Positions 29,784 through 58,307 of a stretch of DNA of 64,000 nucleotides are shown here, one piece after another (the stretch's first letter is position 1; the number at the start of each line of letters is the position of its first letter). Source of the stretch: a phage; sequence record PZ583741.1; one strand, written 5' to 3'. The translations under genes and the position numbers were made by a program. A model generated the notes under the pieces. The model saw only the letters and a program-made list of their open reading frames with translations. It made no database searches and was not told the DNA's origin.

Positions 29784-30293
29784 TCAGAACGGAATGTCGT
29801 CGTCGAAGTCAATCGGCGGCTCATTGCCTCCTTGTGGGCTTTGTTGTTTTTGTGGCTGTTGTTGTTGCGGATTTGTCCCCCATCCACCTTGAGGTTGCTG
29901 TCCTGATTGCTGGCGTGGTTGTTGCTGATCAGAATCATCACGTCTACCACCAAGCATCTGCATAACACCACCCATCTGCGGAATGACAATCTCAGTGGTG
30001 TATTTTTCAACGCCGCTCTGGTCTGTCCATTTGCGAGTGAGTAATTTACCTTCCACGTACACCTGAGAGCCTTTCCGCAGGTATTCACCAGCAACTTCTG
30101 CCAGCTTCCCGAAGATAACCACGCGATGCCATTCAGTTTGCTCTTTCTTTTCACCTGTGGCCTTGTCATTCCACTGTTCTGATGTTGCAACGGAAAGATT
30201 GGCAATTGCAGAACCTGATGCTGAATATCTAATTTCCGGGTCATTACCAACTCGACCAAGGATTATGCACTTATTAATACCAATCGAAGACAT
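29784..30293 (-). CDS. ssb: single-stranded DNA-binding protein
   Basis: OB-fold region, Gln/Gly-rich linker, C-terminal DFDDDIPF tail. Confidence 0.9.
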
Positions 30294-30793
30294 TACTTGA
30301 ATCTCCCGTTTTTATCTCTTAATCTGCCATTATGATTCTCTGTGGCGTGTAATGATGCGTGCTCTGACTTCGTCATAAGCATTAGGTTACTTGGATGGTT
30401 GTTTGTTTTATCATGGTCTATATGATGAACGCATTCATTGTGAAACAACCTCCTCCCAATAATGCCTTCCATAACTACAACATGCTCTCCTCTTCCTTTG
30501 TTTTCACCCATAGTTATCTCGACATAACCGTTCGGTTTTACAGAGCGCCCCTTGCCAACTCCTTTCTTTGATTTTGATATATTTTGCTTCCATTCTTCAG
30601 TAAACTCTCGTTTTTTACCCCTAAGTCCTGAGCCAAGCCTTCCCTCTGCGGCAGCAATTCTTATTGCATCCCCTCTGCTTCTCAATATTCCGGCTTTCTT
30701 AAATCTAAACCTCAATGTTGACATGGCTATTCCTGTTTCATTGGAGATTTGAGGGATGCTCATGCCAGACAAATACATATCAAACTCATTCAT
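30293..30793 (-). CDS. HNH endonuclease
   Basis: [18 protein letters not shown] motif; GGAGG RBS before ATG at 30793. Confidence 0.75.
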
Positions 30794-30873
30794 ATGCACC
30801 TCCTTGTGCAATATAGTAATTTACAACCATCAAGTCAACTTTTAATTACTTTATTTACGCCGCGTGCCATTTA

Positions 30874-32967: not shown

Positions 32968-34876
32968 TATTCTCTCCTGTAAAATCTTTTCTGTGGATTA
33001 TGTCGCGACCTTTATCATTAATACGATGCGTGATGCGTTTTGGCGCTTTAATCAATCCCGCATACATCATGAACTGCTTGGCGTTCTGGCATTTCAGGAT
33101 TTTTCCAGCCATTGACTTATCATCAAGGTGAGGAAATACTGCCTTTGCCTTGAACATATTTTTCATGTGAGTTGCGCCGCCATAAGGGTAGAAAACTTCG
33201 TTAGCCCAGCCTTCTTTGCCATCACAACGATTAATCCAGTAGCGATATAAAATACCATCTCCATCCTTCGTTAACTGGACTTTGAAATCCATAACATCAG
33301 CCCACTCATTATCCGTATACGCACGCTCATTCAGTGCCGCATTCGGGTCACGCAAAACATGATCACAATGCCGGCAATAGCGCGCTGTCGGGTCGTTTTT
33401 AGTACCGCATCCATCATCAAAAATACGGATTCCATGCTTATCGAAGCCGCAACGGATGTAACTGAAAAACTCCTCGCAGCGACCATCTTGCGACAATGCA
33501 TCTTTGCCAATGCAGCGGCGCGCAGATGGGCTGTTCATTGTTCCGCATTTCGGACACGGAACTTGTTCGCCGCTGCGTTTTGAACGTTGCGCTTCAGCCT
33601 CTTCCAGAATAGGGTCTTCATACAGCTGACCAAGCTCAAACATCGTTCCTGAGAAATCAAGAACCAGATGGTCTTCTTTATGATACCCGGCATCAATTTG
33701 CTCTTTCTTCAGCAGGCGCATTCCGCGACCAAGCAGCTGAACAAGAAGAGTGAGTGACATTATTTTTCGTAATATGCAGCTCGTATCCCATAACGGTATA
33801 TTTACGCCAGTGGTAAGGGCTGCTATCTGGAATGTGAATTTTTTACGCCCGGTGTATGCATCTTTTAGAGCCTTCCTTCTGGCTTTTGACCCAATATCTT
33901 CTGTAACTATTGAATAACTTCCTTCAGGCAAATATTTTGCCGCCTCCTGGCAATGCTTTTTACCAGCACATGTAATTAGCACTCCGTTCCTGTTTTTAGT
34001 CAACTCCATAACCTTGAGCATGATTTTCTGCGTCAACGTACCTTGCTCAAGAATTTCTTTCTGCATCTGCTTGAGCTGCTCGGCGGTAAAGTCCTGAGTG
34101 CCATCAACATCTGAACCATGAAAATCCGAAAGGTCATAATGCAGACTATCAACATCATGAAGACCAAAAATTGTTGGCACAAGAAAACCGTTTTCAACCA
34201 TGTACTTGGTGTCTATGTTGATAATCTCTTTCTTCCAGAAAGCGCCTTTTATTGATGTAGTTCCGCGAAACGGTGAGCCTGTATAACCTATTATTCTTAA
34301 CTCATGGCCGTGCTTATCTTTGCACCTTTTCATTAGCTCATTAATTATCACTGCATACTGCGTATCACCATCATTAACAACGTCAATGTCATTAACCATA
34401 TGATTTTCATCGATCAGCAGAAATCTTGGGCAAAAGTCAGAAAGCGCGCCTTTTGCAATAACATTCCCTGACTCATCCTTTTTGTCAAACAAAGCATTTG
34501 CAACAGTACCCTCAGAGCCACAGATTATTGGGTACGTAGAACTTTTCCTACCCAACGAAGCACTGAATAGTGAGTTTCTAACACCAAGCGCCCATAGCTC
34601 TTCCGCATCTTGCTCCACTATTTCGCCCTGTCTTGATAAAATCATCCCTGAATAGCCCATTTCCTGAAAACGCTTTGCTATCATGGCAATCATTAGTGAC
34701 TTTCCGCTACCGACGCTTGCTGTTACATAGCTCGGGCCAACATAATGACGAATAACATCGCCAGTTAACTTATATATCAACCACTGATAAGGTCTTGGCT
34801 CGATATCACCAGTATCCAAGCAGGATTTCAGCAAGTTAATGTCAATCTCTGAAATCATCTTGTCTATTTTGTGCAT
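32942..34876 (-). CDS. superfamily-2 DNA helicase with C-terminal zinc ribbons
   Basis: Walker A SVGSGKS, Walker B LLIDENH, Cys clusters. Confidence 0.75.
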   Translation of the reverse strand: MHKIDKMISEIDINLLKSCLDTGDIEPRPYQWLIYKLTGDVIRHYVGPSYVTASVGSGKSLMIAMIAKRFQEMGYSGMILSRQGEIVEQDAEELWALGVRNSLFSASLGRKSSTYPIICGSEGTVANALFDKKDESGNVIAKGALSDFCPRFLLIDENHMVNDIDVVNDGDTQYAVIINELMKRCKDKHGHELRIIGYTGSPFRGTTSIKGAFWKKEIINIDTKYMVENGFLVPTIFGLHDVDSLHYDLSDFHGSDVDGTQDFTAEQLKQMQKEILEQGTLTQKIMLKVMELTKNRNGVLITCAGKKHCQEAAKYLPEGSYSIVTEDIGSKARRKALKDAYTGRKKFTFQIAALTTGVNIPLWDTSCILRKIMSLTLLVQLLGRGMRLLKKEQIDAGYHKEDHLVLDFSGTMFELGQLYEDPILEEAEAQRSKRSGEQVPCPKCGTMNSPSARRCIGKDALSQDGRCEEFFSYIRCGFDKHGIRIFDDGCGTKNDPTARYCRHCDHVLRDPNAALNERAYTDNEWADVMDFKVQLTKDGDGILYRYWINRCDGKEGWANEVFYPYGGATHMKNMFKAKAVFPHLDDKSMAGKILKCQNAKQFMMYAGLIKAPKRITHRINDKGRDIIHRKDFTGENSEKAIQAA

Positions 34877-35397
34877 TATTTTACCCTACCAAATTCACCA
34901 TGATACTTTTTTGATGCTTCCGCATAAACTTTTGCTGCTTCTTCTTTTGTATCATATCTGCCGAGCCATATTTTTTTATTATTTACATGTATAGAGCAAG
35001 TCCATTTTTTTGTTTGCTTGCAAAAACCAACCCCCTTTACACCGGATGTGTTATGGCTTGGAATCCTCATGTTTCTTAAATTTCCATTAAAGTTTGTTTC
35101 TCTTAGATTTTCTATCCTGTTATTCAATCTATTACCATCTTTATGGTCTATTATTAACTCAGGCCAATAACCATGCACTAAAGCCCAAATTATTCTATGA
35201 ACCTTTATATCAACACCTAAAAAGCCAACCTGAAGATATCCACTTACAGTCTTAGAACCTGCAATAGCGCCACGTTTAACCCTGTTTGTTGTTGTTCTTT
35301 TCCATATGAGATTTATTCCGTCATATGAAAAATACTCCCGCAACGTGGATACTGGTATTGACTTCTCTTTTAACTTCATCAATTCGAAATCATTCAC
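34876..35397 (-). CDS. HNH homing endonuclease with AP2 domain
   Basis: HRIIWALVHG...IDHKDGNRLNNRIENLR; AP2-like C-terminus. Confidence 0.8.
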   Translation of the reverse strand: MNDFELMKLKEKSIPVSTLREYFSYDGINLIWKRTTTNRVKRGAIAGSKTVSGYLQVGFLGVDIKVHRIIWALVHGYWPELIIDHKDGNRLNNRIENLRETNFNGNLRNMRIPSHNTSGVKGVGFCKQTKKWTCSIHVNNKKIWLGRYDTKEEAAKVYAEASKKYHGEFGRVK

Positions 35398-35459: not shown

Positions 35460-36410
35460 ATGTTTTCTTGGGAAGAGATACAACAAAAGATGATTGGAAA
35501 TTGGGAGGCGGCACTACTGTCAATAGTCAACATAGACAGGAAAATTTTTTCTGGAAAACATCAACCATGCCCTCATTGCATGGGGGTTGACCGGTTCCGT
35601 TGGGATAATCACTTCGAAACAAAAGGCGACGGCGGAGCAATCTGCAATCAGTGCGGTTCCGGTAGTGGCATGAACTGGCTGATGAAACTCTCCGGCATGA
35701 GCTTTCCCGAAGCACTGGAGGCGCTGGGTGGATTCCTGAACATGCACCCGCGTGAAAAGCTGGAGGCAATCAGGAAGGAGCTGCCGAAGATAAATCACAA
35801 CGATGACTTCATCACAGAGCAGGAAGTCGCAGCAATCATGGCTAAAACGACGCGTGTCTCGATGAATGAGTGGACTTTGATAAACGGTATTGGTTGCGAC
35901 GTTAATGTCGCCAGAGGTAAATCTGGAGAGCTTATTGTGGTTGAGATGGTGCGTGCTGACACAATGAAGCCGTGCAACGTGGCATTCATTGGCATGGATG
36001 GTGATGCATTCAAAACATTTTATAAAGCAGGATACAACAAAGACTCAGCCATAAACGGAAAACTCACGCGAGGCTCGATAAGCCCAATCGGAGAAGACAA
36101 CGGAAAGTTCATTTATCTGGTATCTGATTATGCCGATGCATGGAAATGCCATTACTTCACTGGCGCTCATGTCTGGTGTTGCTGGTCGCCGGAAAACATG
36201 TGGGAAGTGGTGCGTTCTGTTAGCGATGAGACGAAGGCGAGATTGCGCTGCATAGTTAATTATAAATTTGACGAACTTTGCGCTGCGGAAAATTCAGGGC
36301 TTCCGGTGATGTTGCCTGATGATGCTGACACTATCAGGATGGCGAAGAGAATCAGAAGAAAGATTTATGATGCTGGCGAGTTGATAGAGAAAATGTCAGT
36401 CAGCAGATAA
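35460..36410 (+). CDS. DNA primase (P4-alpha-type zinc-ribbon primase domain)
   Basis: CPHCMGVDRFRWD...GAICNQCGSG zinc-ribbon motif. Confidence 0.65.
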   Translation: MFSWEEIQQKMIGNWEAALLSIVNIDRKIFSGKHQPCPHCMGVDRFRWDNHFETKGDGGAICNQCGSGSGMNWLMKLSGMSFPEALEALGGFLNMHPREKLEAIRKELPKINHNDDFITEQEVAAIMAKTTRVSMNEWTLINGIGCDVNVARGKSGELIVVEMVRADTMKPCNVAFIGMDGDAFKTFYKAGYNKDSAINGKLTRGSISPIGEDNGKFIYLVSDYADAWKCHYFTGAHVWCCWSPENMWEVVRSVSDETKARLRCIVNYKFDELCAAENSGLPVMLPDDADTIRMAKRIRRKIYDAGELIEKMSVSR

Positions 36411-36441: not shown

Positions 36442-36843
36442 TCAGCGTTTCATCTTGTCAATTTCATCGTCAATAATCTTTATTATCTCTCGCTTTGCAT
36501 TCCTCCATGCATAAATGGCATCAAGCGAAGCTCTGTCTTTTGAATCACCGGTAGCTGTTGAATACAGGATTATGTCTCCCATCTTACAAAATGTATCTAT
36601 GTAAACAGCCCTAAAAAGACCATCGCCGCAACTCCAGCACAAGCAATTATTTATTTTCTTGCAATCATTACCAATGATTCCGGTGCTAAACAACTGAATC
36701 CAGCCAATAGGTTCACCAATGGAAATGTCATACTCATCACTATGACCACTAACAGAGCACTCAAGACGGAACGTTCGATATTCATGCAGATTGAGACATA
36801 ATGATCTGTAAATAAGGAATTTAGATCTTTTCTTAACGCTCAT
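36442..36843 (-). CDS. hypothetical protein
   Basis: 133-aa ORF, GAGGGGG RBS. Confidence 0.5.
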   Translation of the reverse strand: MSVKKRSKFLIYRSLCLNLHEYRTFRLECSVSGHSDEYDISIGEPIGWIQLFSTGIIGNDCKKINNCLCWSCGDGLFRAVYIDTFCKMGDIILYSTATGDSKDRASLDAIYAWRNAKREIIKIIDDEIDKMKR

Positions 36844-38435
36844 CACAACCCCCTCATAAATCTCATGCGCTTAACGGCAGCAGAAAGATAATTTCTAACC
36901 GTTGAGTTCATCCGCAGACCATCCCATGAACCATCACTGCACATCTTAATTGCTCTTGGATTATCCCTGTCCAGCATTAGTGGTGAATGTTTGTTCTCCT
37001 CAATAGCAAGAAGAACTTCATAAACAAATTTATCAGGCGTTAACGTGATGTTGTTCGAGTCAGCAGAATTGATTATCTTTTCGACTCTGTCACGGCACAG
37101 CTTGTTCTTTATAACAGACAAATAAGGCGTTTTAATGAATGCTTGTGATTCACAAATTCGCTTTATTTTTTCAACAATGTTCGACCACTCAGTATTCTCA
37201 AGTCCATCAAATGCCTGTTCACCCTCAAGGAATCTTTTCAGCCCCGCGAGGTGTTCAAGAACAGTGAGATAACCCCACTCGATATGCTCCGTCGTAACTG
37301 ATGGTGTCATTCCCTGACGACTTGACAGATCGGTATACGCCGCCAGAGTTGCAAGATCGACAATCATTAGACCCATGCGAGGGATAACATCACCAACAAC
37401 ACCATCGCAATCACCAAGCTCACTTTCCAGTTTCATAGACAGAGATCTGTGCAGTTTTTTCGCATTATCATCAGCCCATACAACGTGAGTTTTCGCGGTA
37501 AGAACCCTACCTTTCCACTCATTGATTATTTTTCTTGAAAGCGTACCACTCACTTCCACATCCTTCATCGCTGGCATTTCCTCACCAGCAAGATGTCCAA
37601 GCTGGAACAGAACGCGACCCATACCGCCATCTTTCTGCCATGAACGCGCAGCATCTATTCCCTGCTCTGGTGTGACAGTAATCAGCGGAACAAATTTTGC
37701 GTTTTCAATTCCACCGTCTTTTGTTGCAATTTCGTACTCATTCATTGCCGACTTTAGCGCGCGCCCAACGCTGTGATCCATCATCGCAAGTCGCTTATAA
37801 TCTATAACTCCTTTTCCATCATCGCCACCAGTAAGTGGCACTATCCATCCCTCAGCGCTTGCTGCCGCCATGATGCGTTTTGGGTTTTGTTCCCAAGTAA
37901 GGTTTTCAAGCAACTCCTTGATTATTGGTCTGTTAGGAACCCACACGCCGCCATCAGTGAGGCCTCTATACCACGCCATAGTACCGCCAAGATATGCATT
38001 ACGCGGGTTATTCCAGTCTTCAAGATGTTGCTTGTCATCATTCACAACGTAGAGCAAAGACCCACCTCCGGCAATCAGGTCTAACTGCATCTGTTTCGTA
38101 GATGTTGATTTAGACGCGCAAACTCTGGACCCTATTCCCAGCGCATTGGCATATGCCCTGACGAAACTCACCGGGGCACCCTTACCTGCACCAGAGCGAG
38201 CTACCAGAAATATGCCAGTATTGCAGATACTACCTGTTGGACCAATCAAGTATCGTCCAGCCATCGCCTGAGCAAGACCCAAAGCGCCAGTTAAACGATA
38301 TCTTCCACCTCCATCACGGCGCTCAAACCCCCTTGCGATCTCATCCATAAACTCACCAAGTGCCCCGGGAGCATCCCGCTTTATGCCCATAGCCAGAGAC
38401 TCAAAATCAATCGAACTCATCAATACACCATCCAT
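36843..38435 (-). CDS. P-loop NTPase, putative replication helicase/ATPase
   Basis: Walker A ARSGAGKG, Walker B-like LLYVVNDD. Confidence 0.55.
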   Translation of the reverse strand: MDGVLMSSIDFESLAMGIKRDAPGALGEFMDEIARGFERRDGGGRYRLTGALGLAQAMAGRYLIGPTGSICNTGIFLVARSGAGKGAPVSFVRAYANALGIGSRVCASKSTSTKQMQLDLIAGGGSLLYVVNDDKQHLEDWNNPRNAYLGGTMAWYRGLTDGGVWVPNRPIIKELLENLTWEQNPKRIMAAASAEGWIVPLTGGDDGKGVIDYKRLAMMDHSVGRALKSAMNEYEIATKDGGIENAKFVPLITVTPEQGIDAARSWQKDGGMGRVLFQLGHLAGEEMPAMKDVEVSGTLSRKIINEWKGRVLTAKTHVVWADDNAKKLHRSLSMKLESELGDCDGVVGDVIPRMGLMIVDLATLAAYTDLSSRQGMTPSVTTEHIEWGYLTVLEHLAGLKRFLEGEQAFDGLENTEWSNIVEKIKRICESQAFIKTPYLSVIKNKLCRDRVEKIINSADSNNITLTPDKFVYEVLLAIEENKHSPLMLDRDNPRAIKMCSDGSWDGLRMNSTVRNYLSAAVKRMRFMRGL

Positions 38436-38710
38436 ACGCGCAAGAATTTACCATGGATAACACCATGTTTCACCGTTAACACAGCACCCACCCTGTCAGC
38501 CTCAATTTTTAGCGCCCTCTGAAGTGACGCCATTGTCATCTGAAAACCTCGCTCTATGTCGTATGCGTAGCACCCATCTCTGCCACCAATCAAAATTGAA
38601 GTTGAATACCCGTTCTCAAAGTAAAACTGACACCCATCAGGAGCGGTAAGATTATTTATCACGTCGTGAGCAAGCGATGTCGTAACAGGGAATATCGGAG
38701 CGCAACTCAT
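38420..38710 (-). CDS. hypothetical protein
   Basis: ATG at 38710 with GAGGTGAG RBS. Confidence 0.45.
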   Translation of the reverse strand: MSCAPIFPVTTSLAHDVINNLTAPDGCQFYFENGYSTSILIGGRDGCYAYDIERGFQMTMASLQRALKIEADRVGAVLTVKHGVIHGKFLRVWMVY

Positions 38711-38717
38711 ACTCACC

Positions 38718-38948
38718 TCACTCAACTCGCTTAATGTGCAAAACTTCATCGAAATATGAGCACGTTCTGAATTTCATCCCAAAATCCTCACCAACCCTTC
38801 CGAGACACGCGCGAAATCTTTCAACAGAAAGCCCTTTATCTGCAATATCCTCATAAGCAATTGAATTAACCTGGCCAACATCCATATGTTTTGCAACGCG
38901 ATACACGAATTCCATCTTTGAACCATCACGATACATTTTGTTTCTCAT
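38718..38948 (-). CDS. hypothetical protein
   Basis: ATG at 38948 with GAGGTGA RBS. Confidence 0.45.
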   Translation of the reverse strand: MRNKMYRDGSKMEFVYRVAKHMDVGQVNSIAYEDIADKGLSVERFRACLGRVGEDFGMKFRTCSYFDEVLHIKRVE

Positions 38949-39126
38949 AGTCACCTCAATCCGCATTCCAACAGTAACTATAGATAAAAAATAAAATTAA
39001 CGCAACGCAAAACAGGTCTAACCAGCAACAACAGCTACCACACTTAACAACTAGTCTGACCACCATCTCGTATCAGATATATGTGGATGGTGCCCGTCGT
39101 TTAATTTGTGCTCGATTTTTACCTAA

Positions 39127-39470
39127 TTTACCGTATATTTATTGGTCAGTTTTTGCATAACTAATTGATTTATATGATTTACCGGTTTTACCGGAACTCT
39201 AAGGAGTATTTTCATCATTGAGAGTAGTAGTATATTAATTGGTCTAATTTTTAAATAACTCTAATAAAATCAATATATTAATATAAGAAAGTAACTTGCT
39301 TACTTATATAGGATTTACCGGGTAAAACCGGTAACTCCTCCGCATCCCGCGTCATTACTGGATTGATTTTTACCACCTGTAGGTAAATACAGTAGTTTTT
39401 AAGTCAGGATTGTTTTTGTAAGATGTTGATTACCGGTACTTTATTTGAAAAACCGGGATTTACCGGGTTT
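39127..39470. repeat. iteron-like array: at least 8 copies of TTTACCGG in direct and inverted orientation inside a ~640 bp AT-rich ORF-free region (candidate replication origin or genome terminus)
   Basis: copies near 39127, 39178, 39187, 39314, 39322(inv), 39430(palindromic TACCGGTA), 39452(inv), 39460. Confidence 0.55.
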
Positions 39471-39544
39471 TTGTTGTGTGATTAATAATTGCGCAATTGG
39501 TCATGTTTCAACAGAACACACTGATGCGACATCTGAAAATCATA

Positions 39545-39574
39545 TTGACGTAGAATTACAACTGATGTAGATTG
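39545..39574. promoter_or_regulatory. early promoter/operator with motif copies TTGACGTAGAAT and TGATGTAGATTG
   Basis: A-module motif at strand-switch region. Confidence 0.35.
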
Positions 39575-39603
39575 AACTCATCGAAACAAACGAGGGTGAA
39601 GAG

Positions 39604-39789
39604 ATGAAAGAAGAAAGCACGTACAGCATTGACCAGATGAAGTTATTCAGCGATATATGCATGGCATTGTCACAACAGGTTCCAAGCCTGCCTGCTGATA
39701 TGCGCTCAAATGCCATCATTGATGCGGCAAACATGATTTGCGAGGCATATGCGATGACTGAAGATGAATATAAGGATTCGAAGAAATGA
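39604..39789 (+). CDS. small acidic early protein
   Basis: 61 aa, GAGGGTGAAG RBS. Confidence 0.5.
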   Translation: MKEESTYSIDQMKLFSDICMALSQQVPSLPADMRSNAIIDAANMICEAYAMTEDEYKDSKK

Positions 39790-40188
39790 CAGGCGCAGCA
39801 TTCGAGCTTATCGCCAGTCTGGTTATCGCGGCATTCATTATCATCGCAGTGGCAGTTTATAAATCAGGATATAAGGAGTGACAGAATGAGCAGCTGGCAT
39901 AATGAACACATCATGCAATGGTATCGTCGCCGCATTAAGACAATCATTAACTCTCACGAGGTGCAATAAATGGCAAAGACTATCTATCGTCGCGAGAAGC
40001 TGGAATAAGAACTCGGTCACGTTGGCGCGCAGAACTTCATGAGCAAGCAGGCACGCAATGCAATGGAATCTATCCGCGTAAATCGCGTTGTGCGCGTGTT
40101 CAATGGCGAGGGTAAACGAAGAGTAATGGATGAGCTGATTATCGTATTTTGACCTCGATTCAGCGCTCTTATTTTTAATGGTGATGAT

Positions 40189-42206: not shown

Positions 42207-42290
42207 GCGGCTAGGGGGCACCCGAAAAGCGACTCATCACCGCCTGCCGCATTCACTTCAATGATGCCCTGATGAGGAATCTATATATGG
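42207..42290 (+). promoter_or_regulatory. conserved 5' leader element, copy 2 (same hairpin/SD arrangement as 4280..4370)
   Basis: aligned by eye to copy 1. Confidence 0.5.
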
Positions 42291-44806
42291 CACGCAAAAG
42301 ACTGTCAGCACCAGCAATTGAAAAACTCGAAGAGATTATTGGCGATGGCGTGATTGATACGCCTGAATCCGCGGTGTTCGGTGTTGTTAATACAGATAAG
42401 CAGATTGTTCGCAAACTAAAAATGACGCAAAGCGGAGTTGATGACGTTAGCGACTCTGATATTAACGTTGATCACCTGATACCAGAAAAGCTGGAAAAGC
42501 TACTTTACCCCAAGCGAAATAAGATTGTGTTTGGCGGGCGCGGATGCTTAGCCATCGGCACAATGGTTAGGATGTTTGATGGTAGCCTAAAACGCGTAGA
42601 GGATATCGCTGTTGGCGATAAGGTTATGGGTCCAGACAGTAAACCACGAAATGTTTTAAGCATCTGCCGTGGGTTTGATGACATGTATACGGTTCATCAA
42701 AAATATGCTGAGGACTACACTGTCAACTCAAGTCACATACTGTCATTACGAAAGATTCCATCTGCTATCAGTGACGAGACAAAAACACCGGATGGTAAAA
42801 GAATTTATCGTTATTACCCAAATGACCCTGAAATACTTAATATCGGTGTTTCAGAATATTTGTCGCGCGCAACTTCCACGAAGTTCCGTCATGTCTTTAA
42901 AGGGTGGCGAACAGGATGGGATTTTCAGGAACAAAGCGTTCCAATTGACCCGTACTTTCTTGGTTTATGGTTAGGTGATGGCTCATCTCGTAGTGTTGAA
43001 GTATGCACGCCTGATCCAGAGATAGTTGACTACCTTCACGGTGTGGCAAGCCAATATGGGATGCAGGTAAAGGTTCGCGACGATGATAGATGCCCTGTCT
43101 ATGCGATAACTAATGGTCGAGCTGCTGGCATGGGGAAAAACACCAACCCTTTACTAACTAAAATGCAGCAGCTTGGGGTGATTAATAATAAACACATACC
43201 TGACTGCTATATTAAAAACAGCAGACAGGTAAGACTTCAGATTCTGGCTGGGCTATTGGATACTGATTCGCATTACCACAAAGAAAAGAAAAGCTATTGT
43301 TTTACATCAATAAATAAAGATATAGCCTTCTCTTTGATGGATGTGGCAAGATCACTTGGCTTCAAGTCAAGCATAATCAAAAAGACCGATGTCACCTTTG
43401 AGTATAAAGGTGAGAAAAGAATATACGAAAAGGATGTGTGGGAGGTGTTCGTTAGTGGTGAACTTCATACAATCCCATGCCGAGTAAAAAGGAAGATAGC
43501 AGAGAAAACCAAGTCAACCCGTGGAAAGATGACTGAGGTGTCATTGTCTTATGCCGGGCATGGTGTATACGCTGGATTCACTCTTGATGGCGATCATCTT
43601 TTCTTGCTTGCTGATGGCACAGTTACACACAACAGCGGAAAAACAAGAACAGTAACTACAATACTTACGGAGCGTGCACGCTTTAAGCCTGACAGGATAG
43701 CTTGTTTCCGTGAGATTCAGCAGTCTATTGAGGATAGTTCGTATCAGGAACTGAAAGACGAGATTGACAGGAAGGGCGAGACAAAAGAGTTTCGCGTAAT
43801 CAACAACGAAATAACACACAAGGTAACGAAAGCAAAGTTCCGCTTTAAAGGTCTGTATCGCAACCAGACGACCGTTAAAGGCTTTGCTGGCATTACAGTC
43901 GCTTGGGTTGAGGAGGCTGAAAACGTTAGCCAGACAAGCTGGGAAATCCTCACTCCAACTGTTCGCGCTGATGGCTCTGAGATATGGGTGACATTCAACC
44001 CAAATAAGGAGCATGACCCCACATGGAAGACGTGGGTTGAGCCGTTTTATAGCAAACTGCGCTCAAGTGGCGGTATTTACGAAGACGAAGAAAACCTGAT
44101 TATTGAATGTAACTATTCAGATAATCCGTGGTTTTGGGATACGCCACTACCCAGCCAAATGCAACGAATGAAAGAGACAGACTTCGACCGCTATCAATGG
44201 GTTTGGGGTGGTCGCTTTAACAAGAGGAATGACGAGCAGGTCTTTGGCGGCAAATGGCGCATTGATAACTTTGAGGTTAAACCTGAATGGCACGGCCCAT
44301 ACTTCGGGATGGACTTCGGGTTTTCCACTGATCCTACCGCAATGATTGAAGTTTACATCGAAGAACTACCAGGTGCACGGCGCAACATTTATATTAATCG
44401 CGAATATGGCAAGGTTGGCCTTGAGATTACCGATACACCAGCTGCGATGGAGCAATCATTCCCGATGGCTAAGCGCGCGCGATGGTATGCAGACTGCGCT
44501 CGACCGGAAACCATCAGCCACATCAAGCGTTCTGGCTTTGATATTCATCCATGCACAAAATGGCCGGGAAGCGTTGAGGATGGCGTAACGTGGCTGCGCG
44601 GCTGCGACAGTATCATCATCCATGAGCGATGCAAGGAAATGCAGAATGAAGCGGCAATGTACAGCTATAAGGTTGATAAGCTGACCGGAAATGTACTCAC
44701 GGATATTGTTGATGCATATAACCATTACTGGGATGCCGTTCGCTATGCGCTTAATGACCACATCGTCCAGCGCGGTAGCGGAATGCTAATCCGGCGCAGG
44801 AGATAA
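42287..44806 (+). CDS. terminase large subunit, intein-containing
   Basis: Walker A GRG|SGKT split by intein; C-terminal nuclease region. Confidence 0.9.
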   Translation: MARKRLSAPAIEKLEEIIGDGVIDTPESAVFGVVNTDKQIVRKLKMTQSGVDDVSDSDINVDHLIPEKLEKLLYPKRNKIVFGGRGCLAIGTMVRMFDGSLKRVEDIAVGDKVMGPDSKPRNVLSICRGFDDMYTVHQKYAEDYTVNSSHILSLRKIPSAISDETKTPDGKRIYRYYPNDPEILNIGVSEYLSRATSTKFRHVFKGWRTGWDFQEQSVPIDPYFLGLWLGDGSSRSVEVCTPDPEIVDYLHGVASQYGMQVKVRDDDRCPVYAITNGRAAGMGKNTNPLLTKMQQLGVINNKHIPDCYIKNSRQVRLQILAGLLDTDSHYHKEKKSYCFTSINKDIAFSLMDVARSLGFKSSIIKKTDVTFEYKGEKRIYEKDVWEVFVSGELHTIPCRVKRKIAEKTKSTRGKMTEVSLSYAGHGVYAGFTLDGDHLFLLADGTVTHNSGKTRTVTTILTERARFKPDRIACFREIQQSIEDSSYQELKDEIDRKGETKEFRVINNEITHKVTKAKFRFKGLYRNQTTVKGFAGITVAWVEEAENVSQTSWEILTPTVRADGSEIWVTFNPNKEHDPTWKTWVEPFYSKLRSSGGIYEDEENLIIECNYSDNPWFWDTPLPSQMQRMKETDFDRYQWVWGGRFNKRNDEQVFGGKWRIDNFEVKPEWHGPYFGMDFGFSTDPTAMIEVYIEELPGARRNIYINREYGKVGLEITDTPAAMEQSFPMAKRARWYADCARPETISHIKRSGFDIHPCTKWPGSVEDGVTWLRGCDSIIIHERCKEMQNEAAMYSYKVDKLTGNVLTDIVDAYNHYWDAVRYALNDHIVQRGSGMLIRRRR
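42545..43633 (+). mobile_element. intein (363 aa) with LAGLIDADG homing endonuclease domain inside terminase Walker A motif
   Basis: starts CLAIGT, ends VTHN followed by extein Ser; two LAGLIDADG motifs (LGLWLGDGSS, LAGLLDTDSH). Confidence 0.8.
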
Positions 44807-45508: not shown

Positions 45509-45718
45509 ATGATGAGCGTTTATTTTTATTGCGGTCACATTGAGCGACAAGGAAGCGTAGCGAGCGTTGGTAGTTTCTGCGGATTATCAATTGGACCTGA
45601 TGCTGTTAGCGCATATGAAGATGTCATGAGAGCGCAGGTGAAGGAAATCCAGTCAATCACTGAGAGCGGCGCTTTTAATCTTTCTGTTATTTTTGATAAA
45701 TTCGAAAAGGTGGAGTGA
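45509..45718 (+). CDS. hypothetical protein
   Basis: 69-aa ORF. Confidence 0.45.
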   Translation: MMSVYFYCGHIERQGSVASVGSFCGLSIGPDAVSAYEDVMRAQVKEIQSITESGAFNLSVIFDKFEKVE

Positions 45719-46194
45719 TGATTGATTGGGTATCTTTATTTGATTATGATGGAGCGTCTTTGGTGTGGAAGCATGGAAGGGGAGGTGTTTCCGTTGGCAG
45801 CATTGCGGGAACGGTTAATGCTGGCGGGTACATTCAGCTCAAAGTTAACGGAAGATTTTATTATGCCCACAGAATTATATGGGAAATGCATAACGGTCCT
45901 ATACCGGAAGGTATGGAGATTGACCACATAAATCATAACAAGGCGGACAACAGGATTGAGAATTTGCGTCTTGTTCGACACAAAACTAACACTAAAAACG
46001 CGCCTAAATACAAAAATAACACCAGCGGCGTTACTGGTGTGAGTTGGTATAAGAGAGATAAAAAATGGCTAGCACAAATAATGGTTGATGGCAATTACAT
46101 ACGTCTTGGTCTTTTTGATAATTTCGAAGCAGCAGTCGACGTGAGAAAGGAAGCAGAACTAAGGTATGGATTTCACAAGAACCACGGCGCTTGA
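45718..46194 (+). CDS. HNH homing endonuclease with AP2 domain
   Basis: HRIIWEMHNGPIPEGMEIDHINH...DNRIENLRLV; C-terminal GFHKNHG. Confidence 0.85.
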   Translation: MIDWVSLFDYDGASLVWKHGRGGVSVGSIAGTVNAGGYIQLKVNGRFYYAHRIIWEMHNGPIPEGMEIDHINHNKADNRIENLRLVRHKTNTKNAPKYKNNTSGVTGVSWYKRDKKWLAQIMVDGNYIRLGLFDNFEAAVDVRKEAELRYGFHKNHGA

Positions 46195-46222: not shown

Positions 46223-47461
<1,239 letters not shown>

Positions 47462-47516
47462 GTTATCTTACAAGGCATCTCGTGGGGTGCCTCAGTAAGA
47501 CAACCGGAGATAGAGC

Positions 47517-47702
47517 ATGAAAACCAAAATGATTCACAAGTCAGAAGTAAAAATTGGCGACACGGTAATTCACTGCGGTGAGATGAAGACGGTTGGCATG
47601 GAAACATTTGGCAAGGATGAGTTTATGGGACTCCTACTGTGGGGTGATAGCTATCGCTGCGGCTACAAGATGGTTGAGGTTGTAACTGAGGTTAAGTTTT
47701 GA
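47517..47702 (+). CDS. hypothetical early protein
   Basis: 61 aa, GGAGA RBS. Confidence 0.5.
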   Translation: MKTKMIHKSEVKIGDTVIHCGEMKTVGMETFGKDEFMGLLLWGDSYRCGYKMVEVVTEVKF

Positions 47703-47746
47703 ATAGCACGAATTGCTAAACCTTCCGCAAGGCCGTTTGATATAGT
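47703..47746 (+). promoter_or_regulatory. B-module promoter cassette 1: ATAGCACGAATTGCTAAA - N20 - TATAGT
   Basis: palindrome TAGCA-N5-TGCTA; -10 hexamer 38 bp after motif start. Confidence 0.5.
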
Positions 47747-47966
47747 GGTCTTGTTGAAGCAAAACAATCAATCATGGGGTTACACAAATGCAAGTTTATA
47801 AATCACCTGGCGGCGCTCGTTACGTTGTTGTTGATGGCATGGTGTACTGCAAGCCGCTAACCGGATTCACATTTCGCTCGTCAATGACGGTGGATCGATA
47901 CCTTTAGTTGATAGGTTGGGGATTTCTTAGGTTTGAAAAGGTAATCAAGCCTATAATGACCGTCAA

Positions 47967-48010
47967 ATAGCACGAATTGTTAAAATGGGATTCATCCTGA
48001 ATGGTATGAT
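47967..48010 (+). promoter_or_regulatory. B-module promoter cassette 2 (variant TTGTTA; -10 TATGAT)
   Basis: same 38-bp spacing. Confidence 0.4.
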
Positions 48011-48162
48011 CCACACATCAACCACAAGAATGGAAGTTAAGTGACGATATACGAACATAAATTCAGCAGTATGGGTATTGATATGCTCCTGCACTATGTA
48101 GACGAAAAATACGCAAATCTCATGCTTAATACGCATGGCGGCACAATAACGAGGATTGAGAT

Positions 48163-48426
48163 ATGAGTAAGTACAACCGTGAGATTATCGGCCTGGATGG
48201 GGAAGTAACCACAGTGGATGTATATCGAGTCCTGGATGCATTCCAGGTAACAGACCAAGCTATACAGCACGCAATCAAGAAGATGCTGTGCACTGGACTT
48301 AGAGGGCATAAGGACTATCTTACTGACATTGAAGACTCCATTGAATCACTGCAAAAAGCCAAGGAACTTTACGATCAGCGCAAGAGTTACGAGCGGCGAT
48401 ACAATTTATCTTTTACAGATAAATAG
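48163..48426 (+). CDS. hypothetical early protein
   Basis: 87 aa, GAGGA RBS; stop TAG lies inside next motif. Confidence 0.5.
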   Translation: MSKYNREIIGLDGEVTTVDVYRVLDAFQVTDQAIQHAIKKMLCTGLRGHKDYLTDIEDSIESLQKAKELYDQRKSYERRYNLSFTDK

Positions 48427-48466
48427 CACGAATTGCTAAACCCGCTCAGAAGGGTTTTGTTATAGT
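48423..48466 (+). promoter_or_regulatory. B-module promoter cassette 3
   Basis: motif plus TGtTATAGT extended -10. Confidence 0.5.
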
Positions 48467-48495
48467 TAGTTCACACCAAACGAGAGGAAATAAAG

Positions 48496-48714
48496 ATGAT
48501 TACTATTAACCTGTCAGATAAACAAGCAGCAGAACTCAAGTCCATGCTTTCAATCTTTGAGAAGCCAAATGACCAGGTAATTGCCAAAGAGGTAGTGGCT
48601 CAGATTAACAACCAGCAATTCGACGTAAGTGACTTCGAGTCATCGCGCCAGTACGAGGCAATGAGTGTTAATGCTGCATACCTGACTAACTGGGATAATG
48701 CGACTAAGAAATGA
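48496..48714 (+). CDS. hypothetical early protein
   Basis: 72 aa, GAGAGGAAA RBS. Confidence 0.5.
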   Translation: MITINLSDKQAAELKSMLSIFEKPNDQVIAKEVVAQINNQQFDVSDFESSRQYEAMSVNAAYLTNWDNATKK

Positions 48715-48860
48715 TTTTATACATACATGAGTACTGGACGGGGAAGTTTAACACAGTTCGACATGTCCGTGTTTACGAAGATTATGTAAATGCATTCAAT
48801 CAGCAGAAGGTTCTTGGTGGCACCATCAAGGTTTGCGATGTTGTGGATGAGATTTACTAA
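48711..48860 (+). CDS. small hypothetical protein (49 aa)
   Basis: manual ORF, ATGA overlap. Confidence 0.35.
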   Translation: MILYIHEYWTGKFNTVRHVRVYEDYVNAFNQQKVLGGTIKVCDVVDEIY

Positions 48861-48904
48861 ATAGCACGAATTGCTAAAGCAGTCTTGGGGTAATTTGTTA
48901 TAGT
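48861..48904 (+). promoter_or_regulatory. B-module promoter cassette 4
   Basis: motif plus TGtTATAGT. Confidence 0.5.
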
Positions 48905-48934
48905 TACCACATCAAAACTAACGAGGTTATAAGA

Positions 48935-49039
48935 ATGAGTGAATTAATTAAAACTATCGCGGACTATCCATTTGCTTCGCTTTTTCTTGCTATTGCAATA
49001 TATGAAATTGTAAAGATTATTGTCAAATGTATTAAATAG
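48935..49039 (+). CDS. small membrane peptide (34 aa)
   Basis: manual ORF, GAGG RBS. Confidence 0.3.
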   Translation: MSELIKTIADYPFASLFLAIAIYEIVKIIVKCIK

Positions 49040-49079
49040 CACGAATTTCTAAAACATTATCGGGGTATCTTACTATAGT
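49036..49079 (+). promoter_or_regulatory. B-module promoter cassette 5 (variant TTTCTA)
   Basis: motif plus TATAGT at fixed spacing. Confidence 0.45.
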
Positions 49080-49109
49080 TACCCCATCAAAACGAAACAG
49101 GAAGCAGAA

Positions 49110-49289
49110 ATGAAATTTCAACAAGGCGAGCCAAAGCTACAAGTCAACCACTTCGATGGTTACGCAACATTCATCATAGCCCAGGCTTGCGGGATGCGAG
49201 ATGAACCTCACGTTCACACCATTCACTTAACAGAAGAACAGGCACGAGAACTGGCTTACGAAATTCTTGAGCAATTGAACCGAATTTAA
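49110..49289 (+). CDS. hypothetical protein (59 aa)
   Basis: GGAAG RBS. Confidence 0.4.
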   Translation: MKFQQGEPKLQVNHFDGYATFIIAQACGMRDEPHVHTIHLTEEQARELAYEILEQLNRI

Positions 49290-49338
49290 CGCGCATAAAA
49301 CGCATTCTAACGAACGATAATTTAAGTAAGGCGATTCT

Positions 49339-49497
49339 ATGATTAAGGTTGTTTTTATTGCTGATGATGGTGTTTATCCATTATTATCTAATGGTGATGT
49401 TATTTACGTGCAAGACATGGGTTGCGCATATATCTATACAGATGAGTTTGGTGACTCTTATTATATTGAGAAATGGGAAGTTGAGGAGATTGCATGA
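49339..49497 (+). CDS. small protein, paralog 1 (52 aa)
   Basis: MIKVVFIADDG...; similar to next ORF. Confidence 0.4.
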   Translation: MIKVVFIADDGVYPLLSNGDVIYVQDMGCAYIYTDEFGDSYYIEKWEVEEIA

Positions 49498-49655
49498 TTA
49501 AGCTTGTTTATGTGGGTGAGAGTGATTATGTGGCGCTCATTCAGAGTGGTGATGTGTTCTTCGCAGAGATGAGTGATGATGGTAGTTTCTACATCGTAAA
49601 GAACAAGAATGGCGAAGATATCTACCTTTCAAAAGATGAGGTCATCATTTACTAA
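49494..49655 (+). CDS. small protein, paralog 2 (53 aa)
   Basis: MIKLVYVGESD...; tandem duplicate. Confidence 0.4.
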   Translation: MIKLVYVGESDYVALIQSGDVFFAEMSDDGSFYIVKNKNGEDIYLSKDEVIIY

Positions 49656-49780
49656 TGGATAACTACGAATCACCAGTAGAGTGGTGTAAGCGAATGCAGG
49701 ACGAAGCTAAAACTGGTGAAGAGGCGATGGCTTACTACGAACTGGCGCAAATTTGGATGGAACGTGAGAAGAAAGAATGA
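49655..49780 (+). CDS. small hypothetical protein (41 aa)
   Basis: manual ORF with overlapping start/stop. Confidence 0.3.
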   Translation: MDNYESPVEWCKRMQDEAKTGEEAMAYYELAQIWMEREKKE

Positions 49781-49920
49781 GCTTCACTGAATACGTTATC
49801 GCATGCGAGAGACTGGTCTTTGACATGAAGACTTTTCACTGGTTCATCATCAAGGATTTAATTAAGCCTTACAAGCAAGGCGTTACGCCAGAGGCTTTTG
49901 TTAAGTCATTCTACAAATAG
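49777..49920 (+). CDS. small hypothetical protein (47 aa)
   Basis: manual ORF; stop TAG inside next motif. Confidence 0.35.
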   Translation: MSFTEYVIACERLVFDMKTFHWFIIKDLIKPYKQGVTPEAFVKSFYK

Positions 49921-49960
49921 CACGAATTGCTAAACGCAGTCGCCATGGATGGCATATAAT
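49917..49960 (+). promoter_or_regulatory. B-module promoter cassette 6 (-10 TATAAT)
   Basis: motif plus consensus -10 at fixed spacing. Confidence 0.5.
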
Positions 49961-49993
49961 TACCACATCAACACAACGAAGAGAGATATAATA

Positions 49994-50140
49994 ATGAAAA
50001 ATGTATTTGGCATCAGCTATGAAGAAGAGTTTGTTGATTGCCTTATTTACCTGAATGAGATCTACGGAGATGAGTTTGAATGTGATGGTGATTCACTTCA
50101 TGCAAAAATAGAACTTGAAACATTTGGGGAGGTTGTCTAA
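49994..50140 (+). CDS. hypothetical protein (48 aa)
   Basis: ATG at 49994 in ORF 49949..50140. Confidence 0.4.
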   Translation: MKNVFGISYEEEFVDCLIYLNEIYGDEFECDGDSLHAKIELETFGEVV

Positions 50141-50382
50141 TGATGTTTGGATTATCAGAAGCACACTTCAACGCAGTTAAACGCCAGGCAGCAAAGTTGA
50201 ACGAAGAGTACAGCAAGTTATCGCCAAAACAGCGCAAGGACGATAAGCAGGTTGCGGCATTGATTTCAAAGATGTGGGAGCCAGTTTTCACAATCATTAG
50301 TCGAGACCGCTTTGTTTGGACCAGTGGGTATCTTAAGGGTAGAGTAGGTCACGACGAGAATGGGAATAGTCTTTATGAGTAA
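50140..50382 (+). CDS. hypothetical protein
   Basis: 80 aa, GGGAGG RBS. Confidence 0.5.
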   Translation: MMFGLSEAHFNAVKRQAAKLNEEYSKLSPKQRKDDKQVAALISKMWEPVFTIISRDRFVWTSGYLKGRVGHDENGNSLYE

Positions 50383-50557
50383 TTGCAATAAGCATAGGTA
50401 TAAGTACGCTTTCAGTTCAAAACTTACAGCCCACGACATAAAACTACTTAATCTAGGTTACTTCAAATCCAGCAAAAATGAAAATCATGTCGGGGATTAT
50501 AGATCATTTTATGAGTGCGTTAATTGCGGCGAGATGATTGCGATGGGGGTATTATGA
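50360..50557 (+). CDS. hypothetical protein (zinc-finger-like)
   Basis: 65-aa ORF; start uncertain (50360 or 50375). Confidence 0.35.
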   Translation: MGIVFMSNCNKHRYKYAFSSKLTAHDIKLLNLGYFKSSKNENHVGDYRSFYECVNCGEMIAMGVL

Positions 50558-50640
50558 GTGAGTTAACAATCTGGTTTATCGCAGGTCTGATTACTTGGGC
50601 TTACTTTTTAATCGTTTAGATTGAGCTTGTTAAAAAGAGC

Positions 50641-50669
50641 TTGCATCACTGACAGGAATTATCTAATAT
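50641..50669 (+). promoter_or_regulatory. sigma70-like promoter (TTGCAT - 17 bp - TAATAT) upstream of tRNA
   Basis: hexamers and spacing read from sequence. Confidence 0.4.
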
Positions 50670-50838
50670 TAACCACGTAGACAAACGAGGCCACCAGGTG
50701 GCAACGGCGCACGGAGCGCACTACACGGCAAGTCCGTAGCTCATTAAGTAGCGTATGCGGCATTAAGACCTAGCGCAAATAGGCAGATTAATCGGCTGTA
50801 TCAGGCAGCCCCGGAGCCGTAACCGGGACTCATTCAAA

Positions 50839-50916
50839 GCTCTGCTAGCTCAATTGGACAGAAGCAACGACCTTCTAAGTCGCAGGTTACTGGTTCGAAT
50901 CCAGTGCGGAGCGCCA
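50839..50916 (+). tRNA. tRNA-Arg (anticodon UCU), CCA encoded
   Basis: 7-bp acceptor stem, GG in D-loop, anticodon loop CUUCUAA, T-loop TTCGAAT, 3' GCCA. Confidence 0.75.
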
Positions 50917-50931
50917 ATAAAGGAGTTCATT

Positions 50932-51114
50932 ATGTGGGATGTGAAGTTGTCAATTCGCTTAATGGGCCGCTCGTGCAAGAATTGCACTCAAGAATACATC
51001 GCGTCAGTTGCCGCAATCAGCGCTGAGGATGCGGTAGCGAAAGTAAAGGAGATGTCAGGCGCTGACCCTGACACCCACAAATTCCTGGTAGCTTACGTTC
51101 GTGAGCAAAAGTAA
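50932..51114 (+). CDS. hypothetical protein (60 aa)
   Basis: AAGGAG RBS; track ORF 50854 overlaps the tRNA so start moved. Confidence 0.45.
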   Translation: MWDVKLSIRLMGRSCKNCTQEYIASVAAISAEDAVAKVKEMSGADPDTHKFLVAYVREQK

Positions 51115-51154
51115 AAAGTGTTATACCCTCGTTAAGTTTCGTTTCTCTCGTTGT

Positions 51155-51184
51155 TTTTAGCCCTCGCTTGAGGGCTTTTTTTCG
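51155..51184 (+). terminator. rho-independent terminator
   Basis: hairpin agccctcgcttgagggct plus T6. Confidence 0.6.
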
Positions 51185-51225
51185 TCTGCAATATGCTATA
51201 ATCTGGAATCAACAAAGGAGGATTT

Positions 51226-51732
51226 ATGAGCAAAGCAGCATTAAAGATGGGTGAGGGAAATTTCAAGGCGCTCTACAACAAGAAGTATGGCGACATTGCT
51301 ATGGTGGCAATCAACCGCAAGTACACGCCTGAGGAAGTTTTCGATTTCGCCGTTAGATACTTCTCCTGGGCTGAGAGCGAGGCAATTAAGGCTATTGAGA
51401 CGGCTGCTTTCCAGGGTGTGGTTAGCGAGAGCCTCGTACACAAGCCTAGAGTATTCACCTTAACTGGGCTGGCGCTCTTTATGGGTGTCAATATCAATAG
51501 ATTCGCTCGCTGGCGTACTGAGGCTGGATACTCTGATGTGATGGAATTCATTGATAACGTTATTTACGAGCAGAAGTACCAGCTTGGTGTCGCAGGCATC
51601 ATCAACTCTACCATCGTTGGTAAAGAGCTAGGAATTGATAAGCCGCAGGAGATTAAGATTAGCAACAACTCCACAGCTAACGATGTTGACAGTATGAAGG
51701 AAGCACTTGAGTCCGTGATCAGTAAGCTATAG
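51226..51732 (+). CDS. terminase small subunit
   Basis: 168 aa, HTH-like TLTGLALFMGVNINRFARW; AAGGAGG RBS; upstream of large terminase. Confidence 0.6.
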   Translation: MSKAALKMGEGNFKALYNKKYGDIAMVAINRKYTPEEVFDFAVRYFSWAESEAIKAIETAAFQGVVSESLVHKPRVFTLTGLALFMGVNINRFARWRTEAGYSDVMEFIDNVIYEQKYQLGVAGIINSTIVGKELGIDKPQEIKISNNSTANDVDSMKEALESVISKL

Positions 51733-51800
51733 CACTTATTGTTAAAAGAATGGGCCCAATCAATGAGATAATTGGGTCACTAACTTAACGAGGTGATGAT

Positions 51801-53877: not shown

Positions 53878-53917
53878 CACAAATTGCTAAACACTAAAGC
53901 CACGGATGGCGTATAGT
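53874..53917 (+). promoter_or_regulatory. B-module promoter cassette 7 (variant ATAGCACAAATTGCTAAA)
   Basis: terminase stop TAG is inside motif; TATAGT at fixed spacing. Confidence 0.45.
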
Positions 53918-53946
53918 TACTTCACACAAAAGAGAGGAGAAGAAAG

Positions 53947-54279: not shown

Positions 54280-54298
54280 CCACAAAAGCTATGATAAA

Positions 54299-54325
54299 CT
54301 AGCCCCTAAATGGGGCTTTTTTATT
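54299..54325 (+). terminator. rho-independent terminator
   Basis: hairpin agcccctaaatggggct plus T6. Confidence 0.6.
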
Positions 54326-54335
54326 GGAGAAAAAC

Positions 54336-58304: not shown

Positions 58305-58307
58305 TAA

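Follow-up and report, generated by a model that had tools for sequence, protein, structure and literature searches.

The 64,000-nucleotide stretch of phage DNA analyzed here (sequence record PZ583741.1; hereafter, the window) contains a 655-bp non-coding gap at 38949–39603, which carries an array of short repeats that we examine as a candidate origin of replication. The window consists of two unrelated phage contigs joined at 47403/47404. Bases 1–47403 represent a Skatevirus-like phage, and the repeat array sits in this part; bases 1–127 recur exactly at 47277–47403, as is typical of a circular contig (~47,276 bp) assembled with an overlap of 127 bp. The remaining bases, 47404–64000, represent a Dhillonvirus-like phage with a tRNA-Arg at 50839–50916. 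Over the region of the array, the nearest relatives are Escherichia phages TanjaMuster_Bas81, vB_EcoS_ASO78B, and ZCEC08 (88–95% identity), followed by Bas80/Bas77 (82%). Phages Bas77–81 have been assigned to the Skatevirus cluster of small siphoviruses (BASEL paper).

The gap lies between a leftward replication operon and a divergent rightward early operon, with boundaries taken from the list of open reading frames (ORFs) and annotated identically in relatives. The leftward operon begins with gp76 and gp96, followed by a gene for a 530-amino acid (aa) P-loop protein. Beyond it, the replication block holds a plus-strand primase, HNH endonuclease genes, a superfamily 2 (SF2) helicase, VRR-NUC, an exonuclease, ERF, and a single-stranded DNA-binding protein (SSB). 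The rightward operon comprises small early genes that continue into terS and terL, placing the array ~2.3 kb upstream of terS. A sequence-only reading of this DNA had described an ORF-free region of ~640 bp with interspersed AT-rich tracts and an array at 39100–39480, situated between a minus-strand helicase/primase block and plus-strand early genes. These features were all confirmed: gp76, gp96, the P-loop protein, the primase, and the SF2 helicase lie to one side and the small early genes to the other, the gap has a GC content of 35%, and no ORF within it reaches 60 aa. The sole ORF present is a 41-aa ORF with a TTG start at 39445–39570 on the plus strand. Public records of relatives do annotate small “hypothetical” or “putative membrane” proteins within the gap, over the repeats and AT-rich core, as with Bas81_0088 and seszw gene 51 (2265–2504 of seszw mutant record L044). 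Because of the repeat architecture, ORFs annotated inside the gap, including that at 39445–39570, are probably spurious.

The full repeat unit is ~9 bp and can be written as (A/T)TTTACCGG, comprising a TTACC core and a variable CGG tail. The core occurs 11 times between 39119 and 39464, with eight copies on the plus strand and three on the minus. The longer TTACCGG is found six times in the gap (five plus, one minus) and five times in all of the remaining 46.6 kb of the phage, so that it is enriched 78-fold here, and no second cluster of TTACCGG exists elsewhere in the phage genome. Of exact TTTACCGG, the gap has four copies, all on the plus strand, and the rest of the phage has one, at 9976. 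Tandem pairs are spaced at exactly 9 bp in three cases, namely 39119/39128, 39179/39188, and, on the minus strand, 39334/39325. The sequence-only reading had reported at least eight copies of the repeat in direct and inverted orientation, a number that is reached only with the degenerate core; inverted copies are likewise a property of TTACC and TTACCGG, not of exact TTTACCGG. Its tandem copy (TTTACCGGTTTTACCGG, 39178–39194) and palindromic copy (TACCGGTA, 39431–39438) are both present.

As the gap is AT-rich, we considered whether the repeats arose by chance or through low sequence complexity. When the gap was shuffled 5000 times with its dinucleotides preserved, TTACC occurred 2.1 times on average and nine times at most (11 observed), TTTACC 0.7 times (nine observed), and TTACCGG 0.09 times (six observed), and none of the 5000 shuffles reached the observed value for any of the three, which excludes chance. 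We then measured conservation across five relatives of 82–95% identity. The TTACC core columns were invariant in 54 of 55 cases (98%), compared with 71% of the remaining array columns (Fisher p about 1e-6), which rules out neutral drift. The array is real, non-random, and under constraint.

The repeats fall into left and right clusters around an AT-rich core. On the left, iteron pair A (GATTTTTACCTAATTTACCGTAT, 39114–39136, plus strand) has two TTACC cores 9 bp apart, both directed toward the AT-rich core and both invariant in the five relatives, and pair B (GATTTACCGGTTTTACCGGAA, 39176–39196, plus strand) is a tandem of the 9-bp unit. The reverse complement of pair B recurs at 39321–39337, as an inverted repeat of 17 nt with 94% complementarity. 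This second arm lies within the first of the right-hand elements, triple C (GATTTACCGGGTAAAACCGGTAACTCC, 39312–39338), in which one plus-strand copy is followed by two minus-strand copies, spaced at 9 bp and facing the core. Triple C is wholly invariant in the five relatives, and its order of one plus and two minus copies is also found in a related lineage whose repeat is AGTTACCGG. Pair D (GATTTTTACCACCTGTAGGTAAATAC, 39365–39390) consists of two convergent TTACC cores and is nearly invariant among relatives, and iteron E (GATTACCGGTAC, 39428–39439), which includes the palindrome TACCGGTA, is invariant. Finally, iteron F (AAAAACCGGGATTTACCGGGTTTTTGTTG, 39448–39476, plus strand) has one full copy flanked by ACCGG half-copies and then a T-tract; it could form a weak hairpin through an inverted repeat, and the terminator scan made no call there. 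In total, the left side has four copies, all on the plus strand and pointing toward the core, and the right side has seven, of which four are on the plus strand and three (39325, 39334, and 39386) are on the minus strand, facing back.

A nearest-neighbor stability scan of the whole phage identified the least stable 100-mer of the 47.3-kb genome at 39218–39317 (81% AT), and the least stable 60-mer at 39228–39287 (87% AT). Both lie between the left repeats (39114–39196) and the right repeats (39312–39476), making 39218–39317 a candidate DNA-unwinding element.

To place this layout in context, we compared the homologous gaps of relatives of increasing distance, each taken from the first gene of the helicase operon to a conserved rightward promoter (10 gaps from about seven helicase lineages). 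All 10 keep the layout of two short-repeat clusters around a core of 82–92% AT, with tandem copies spaced at 7–11 bp. In four gaps from three lineages (loci L012, L013, L041, and L042), the orientation is strictly opposite, with left copies pointing one way and right copies the other. The repeat sequence itself is lineage-specific, and in a cross-table, each type was exclusive to its own gap. The window, Bas81, ASO78B, ZCEC08, and Bas80 share TTTACCGG, with 11 copies of the TTACC core. IMG/VR loci L017–L019 carry AGTTACCGG (11–14 copies with a period of 9), and L012–L016 together with L020 carry GAGTTCCC (7–11 copies). Phages seszw, sal3, and INT55 have GGGATAA / TTATCC (8–10 copies), SB28 has GGGCATA / GTGCCC (12 copies), L041 has TTACCA(A/G) (11 copies), and L042 has TTACCAT / TTACTA (11 copies). 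For seszw (L043, 2702–3162) and sal3 (L005, 1556–2065), the iteron (G)GGATAA reads TTATCC(C) on the opposite strand, which equals the first six bases of the Escherichia coli DnaA box TTATCCACA; some of the copies differ from a full box at no more than one position.

We then asked which genes change along with the repeats. The 530-aa protein is 95–99% identical among phages with the same repeats, 51% identical in the AGTTACCGG lineage, and 57–58% identical in the GAGTTCCC lineage; in the TTATCC and GGGCATA lineages, identity is about 22% and the protein was not found by tblastn. The primase shows 87–88% identity among same-repeat phages, 89–91% in the AGTTACCGG lineage, 87% in TTATCC phages, and 90% in the GGGCATA phage, and drops to 55–59% only in the GAGTTCCC lineage. 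The small terminase subunit, TerS, is 97%, 91%, and 98% identical in the AGTTACCGG, GAGTTCCC, and TTATCC lineages, respectively. Repeat type thus follows the helicase cassette, not TerS, and not the primase outside the GAGTTCCC lineage. Because the repeats change with the helicase while TerS and, for the most part, the primase stay alike, the gap and helicase operon are, judged from these comparisons, a single cassette that travels within otherwise near-identical genomes.

These identities bear on the alternative raised in the sequence-only reading, namely that the repeats mark a packaging (pac) or terminal site, which would be read by the small terminase. The array does occupy an operon-free gap not far upstream of terS, and some pac sites, that of P1 among them, consist of short repeats clustered about the zone of cleavage. 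However, the putative reader is constant while the site changes, and the repeats co-vary with the helicase cassette instead. The record of INT55 starts near the gap, and we rejected this record end as a terminus signal; it reflects an assembly overlap and is uninformative on termini. Since TerS is unchanged across lineages with unrelated repeats, a packaging function is disfavored, and we regard it as extremely improbable.

A further possibility is that the repeats are sites for host factors such as DnaA, integration host factor (IHF), Fis, or a host regulator, for which the resemblance of the TTATCC repeat to the start of a DnaA box in one related lineage could be cited. DnaA-box-like sites are, however, not enriched and stand at chance level in the window (73 observed versus 70 expected), and the gap lacks a perfect box. 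In addition, phages that infect the same hosts have unrelated repeats at the same position. As phages with different repeats share hosts, host factors are disfavored, and together with the chance explanation above, we consider this reading very unlikely.

The protein that changes with the repeats, encoded at 36843–38435 on the minus strand, is an MCM-like AAA+ helicase of superfamily 6 (SF6, DUF3987-type) and is our proposed initiator. Its gene starts 514 bp from the array, with two small genes between them and the array upstream of the operon. The protein has a Walker A motif, GAGKG, at residues 82–86 and a Walker-B-like motif, LLYVVNDD, at residues 127–134. An AlphaFold2 (AF2) model built from a 22-sequence alignment, obtained by exhaustive profile search, was confident, with a predicted local distance difference test (pLDDT) score of 87, and on this model, the 530-aa protein is assigned an MCM-like AAA+ fold. 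A model from seven sequences (pLDDT 45) was unusable. In the C-terminal ~90 residues, the confident model places helices at 439–446, 449–460, and 467–479 and strands at 486–488 and 495–498. This is a winged-helix-like order, and a C-terminal winged helix, predicted from secondary-structure order alone, would be consistent with it. DUF3987 proteins are SF6, MCM-related replicative helicases that have a C-terminal winged helix and are primase-associated (PMC4889955), and helicase activity has been demonstrated for one member (PMC11724360).

The exhaustive profile search recovered only 49 representatives of the helicase, the remote ones of which carry PF13148. One of these remote homologs scores above the Pfam cut-off (P0024, 35.3 bits), and some are fusions that also contain primase domains of the AEP/NrS-1 type or an N-terminal DnaB domain. 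Against PHROGs, the helicase matched “DNA primase” fusion proteins in their C-terminal half (PHROG 3022, E 2e-11). A Foldseek search of BFVD returned several proteins annotated as “DUF3987 domain-containing” (E 1e-9 to 1e-5), as well as primase/polymerase-helicase fusions (E 1e-17 to 1e-13).

Sequence identity along the helicase was also uneven. Compared with the lineage sharing TTACCGG, residues 400–500 are 68% and 56% identical, against about 42% for the remainder of the protein; compared with the GTTCCC lineage, the same residues are 52% and 36% identical, against about 60% for the remainder. This trend, from three lineages only, is consistent with a C-terminal specificity domain.

Two small proteins are encoded between the helicase and the array. 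The gene for gp96 (38420–38710, minus strand) is immediately upstream of the helicase gene and overlaps it, and gp76 (38718–38948, minus strand; phrog_28700), the first gene of the leftward operon, is a paralog within the same small-protein family. Members of this family, 67–96 aa in length, are encoded directly upstream of the MCM-like helicase in every lineage, often overlapping it (for example, L012 2618–2896, L017 2657–2935, L041 795–998, L009 6371–6592, and L010 6586–6807), and the family is duplicated in this phage. Searches of Pfam and the PDB with gp76 and gp96, including a small-protein profile, gave no match and no recognizable DNA-binding domain. Between the window and Bas80, which have the same repeats, gp76 is 31% identical, gp96 90%, and the helicase 95%. 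Because gp76 diverges this far while the repeats stay the same, it is unlikely to be the determinant of repeat specificity. Its paralog gp96 is an alternative candidate for the iteron reader, and the family could serve as a loader, adaptor, or origin-binding factor.

On the other side of the helicase, at a distance of about 430 bp, a plus-strand gene (35460–36410) encodes a DnaG-type primase with a zinc ribbon (PF08273, E 4e-10; phrog_510, E 7e-77), which is probably the partner of the helicase. Three HNH (HNH_3) homing-endonuclease genes are inserted between core genes, at 30293–30811 (minus), 34876–35397 (minus), and 45715–46194 (plus); two of the three have an AP2 domain, and two lie in the replication block. 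The large terminase gene (42272–44806, plus) is split by an intein, with a Hint domain at residues 92–176 and a LAGLIDADG homing endonuclease at ~309–375, and the Terminase_3 and RNaseH-like domains follow downstream of the intein.

We next located the promoters that flank the array. A promoter scan identified a rightward early promoter candidate, TTGACG-17-TAGATT, at 39545–39573 on the plus strand, ~80 bp past the last iteron. It falls in a 65-bp block (39539–39603) comprising the promoter, leader, and ribosome-binding site that is 89–98% conserved in about 150 related phages of Salmonella, Escherichia, Shigella, and Klebsiella, in which the upstream gap sequence is otherwise unrelated. On this comparison, the block has the appearance of a constant border up to which origin cassettes are exchanged. 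The leftward candidate, TTGCGT-17-TATAGT (38977–39005, minus strand), was read by eye as an inference only; it lies ~110 bp from the first iteron and under the scan threshold, with a −35 element matching at three of six positions. The scan for promoters and terminators found no more sites than in shuffled sequence, and among the scanned promoters, only the rightward one is credible, because it is conserved. Within 38700–39900, an Rfam search (E up to 1) gave no match, and a tRNA search found none in the array region; with both searches empty, a structured-RNA reading of the gap was dropped.

The position of the array between two divergent promoter candidates raises the possibility that the repeats are operators, through which a phage transcription regulator, for instance of the gp76/gp96 family, would control both early promoters. 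A small uncharacterized protein family is always encoded beside the array and co-varies with the repeats within the cassette, as an operator model would have it. But neither promoter candidate is overlapped by a repeat, the nearest being at the distances given above. Moreover, with 11 copies distributed across 350 bp and the genome’s least stable DNA in their midst, the layout is that of an origin, not of an operator; the small proteins have no recognizable DNA-binding domain, and the repeats of Bas80 are unchanged despite the divergence of its gp76. We therefore consider a purely regulatory array unlikely. Regulation could also coexist with origin function, as origins and autoregulatory operators frequently coincide.

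Collectively, we judge that the array is probably the phage’s lytic replication origin (oriLyt). The iteron-type origin put forward in the sequence-only reading is supported in that the repeats flank the least stable DNA, face each other, lie in the same cassette as the gene for an MCM-like helicase, and change with that cassette. Its type needs adjustment, as the unit is 5–9 nt, not a plasmid-style iteron of 17–22 bp. By analogy with the Rep system of Staphylococcus aureus pathogenicity islands (SaPIs), we infer that a protein binds the repeats, which protein this is, that the core is melted, and that replication starts at the array; a SaPI-like mechanism is proposed because the window matches a SaPI origin at each architectural point that could be tested. 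In this model, about 11 short iterons would flank an AT-rich unwinding element of ~100 bp. The 530-aa MCM-like helicase would recognize the TTACC iterons through its C-terminal winged-helix-like domain, or with the aid of gp96, and would assemble on both sides of 39218–39317 before melting the core. It would then load itself as the replicative helicase and recruit the neighboring DnaG-type primase. Whether the helicase itself reads the iterons we regard as an even call.

Several points weigh against the origin model or its details. Orientation on the right side of the array is mixed (four plus, three minus), not strictly opposed to the left. The cumulative GC-skew minimum at 38–39 kb, a check proposed in the sequence-only reading, cannot be separated from the change of coding strand there and so is not independent evidence; it was not used. 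For the helicase, the Pfam DUF3987 (PF13148) match is below threshold (14.4 versus 27 bits, E 0.023), a search against all PDB chains (phmmer and a 19-sequence profile) gave P-loop matches only, with no sequence match to SaPI Rep or Cch, and the C-terminal winged helix comes solely from the order of secondary-structure elements in the model. The identity trend in the C-terminal domain derives from only three lineages, and co-variation with the repeats is just as good for gp96 and its family as for the helicase. Finally, our literature search found that neither an origin nor data on replication initiation, melting, or binding had been described for these phages. The type of origin is already known, and its instance in this phage group is new.

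Genome-reduced mutants of a related phage were also examined. CRISPR-driven (clustered regularly interspaced short palindromic repeats) genome reduction of Skatevirus seszw removed up to about 17% of its genome (PMC9825161). In three of the smallest deposited mutants (L044, L045, and L046, compared against 609–3371 of L043), no change is seen in the helicase or the small partner gene, nor in any part of the gap or the first gene of the rightward operon (all 100% intact), and the deletions start directly to the right. Retention of the gap is consistent with an essential module, as far as these sequences indicate, though it is weak evidence for the origin since the gap was perhaps never targeted for deletion.

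These phages are widespread small siphoviruses of Salmonella and E. coli that include the Skatevirus cluster, Bas77–81 from the BASEL collection, and several candidates for phage therapy. If the array is the origin, then the site has been narrowed to about 360 bp and a probable initiator named. The group would also offer about seven natural pairs of helicase and iteron specificity in tractable coliphages, suited to the study of DNA recognition by MCM-like self-loading helicases, and orthogonal origin/initiator parts for phage engineering. It would further account for the mosaic replacement of replication modules among genomes that are otherwise 90–98% identical. A bolder and still doubtful proposal is that Skatevirus-like virulent siphoviruses carry a swappable cassette of origin, MCM-like helicase, and partner in at least seven mutually exclusive specificity classes, exchanged by recombination into near-identical genomes, and that the 67–96-aa partner (gp96), not the helicase, is the iteron reader or loader. 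Such a partner would represent a novel type of factor for origin recognition by the MCM-like helicases of bacterial viruses, and if it is the reader, its family would represent a natural recognition code for orthogonal replicons.

The candidate origin can be compared with several known systems. Like the iteron origins of plasmids pSC101, R6K, RK2, P1, and F, and like lambda ori with its O protein, it has repeated, putatively initiator-specific sites adjoining an AT-rich unwinding region. The iterons of those systems are 17–22 bp long, mostly in one orientation, and phased at ~22 bp, whereas here the units are 8–9 bp and occur in both orientations. In plasmids and lambda, the iterons are bound by a dedicated winged-helix protein (Rep or O), through which host DnaB is recruited, and DnaA boxes are usually present as well; Pfam searches found no Rep_3 or lambda-O-like protein among the neighboring proteins here, and DnaA boxes are not enriched. 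The origin of phage P4 has the octamer iteron TGTTCACC, repeated both directly and inverted, and the initiator alpha binds these iterons through its C-terminal domain. Alpha is an SF3-type primase-helicase fusion, and it requires a second site, crr. The array shares with P4 its repeated iterons in both orientations, but here the helicase is MCM-like, the primase is separate, and the genome lacks a second TTACCGG cluster.

Among helicases of the DUF3987 (PF13148) type, such as AgaPH (PMC11724360) and Cch of the staphylococcal cassette chromosome mec (SCCmec), the common features are Walker A/B motifs and an association with a primase, which here takes the form of a DnaG-type primase gene. Unlike AgaPH and Cch, the 530-aa protein is below the Pfam family threshold and has no PriCT or AEP domain. 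In our literature search, we found no cognate origin defined for DUF3987-type helicases.

The closest parallel is with the SaPIs. Their origins have 6–12 penta- or hexanucleotide iterons split around an AT-rich center, each side having two or more that are oriented opposite to those across the center. Rep, an MCM-like self-loading helicase, binds them through its C-terminal winged helix and needs no ATP to do so (PMC9371898). Rep is encoded next to the origin with a primase beside it, and its specificity is particular to each element (PMC9371898). Some differences are evident. The helicase described here has no detectable sequence similarity to SaPI Rep chains, and its origin is upstream of the helicase operon and two small genes away, while that of SaPIs is immediately downstream of rep. 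The host element is a virulent enterobacterial siphovirus as opposed to a satellite island, and it encodes a conserved small partner protein of a kind that has not been reported for SaPIs. By sequence, then, the helicase is not a member of the Rep family, and the proposal is that the array would work like a SaPI origin. The likenesses extend to short, multi-copy iterons (5–6 nt in 6–12 copies in SaPIs, and a 5-nt core within a 9-nt unit in 11 copies here), placed on both sides of an AT-rich center with at least two per side in opposing directions. As in SaPIs, a primase gene is nearby, the proposed initiator is an MCM-like AAA+ helicase, and iteron sequence and helicase co-vary between elements; the helicase here has a predicted C-terminal winged helix, and its gene lies in the same cassette as the array.

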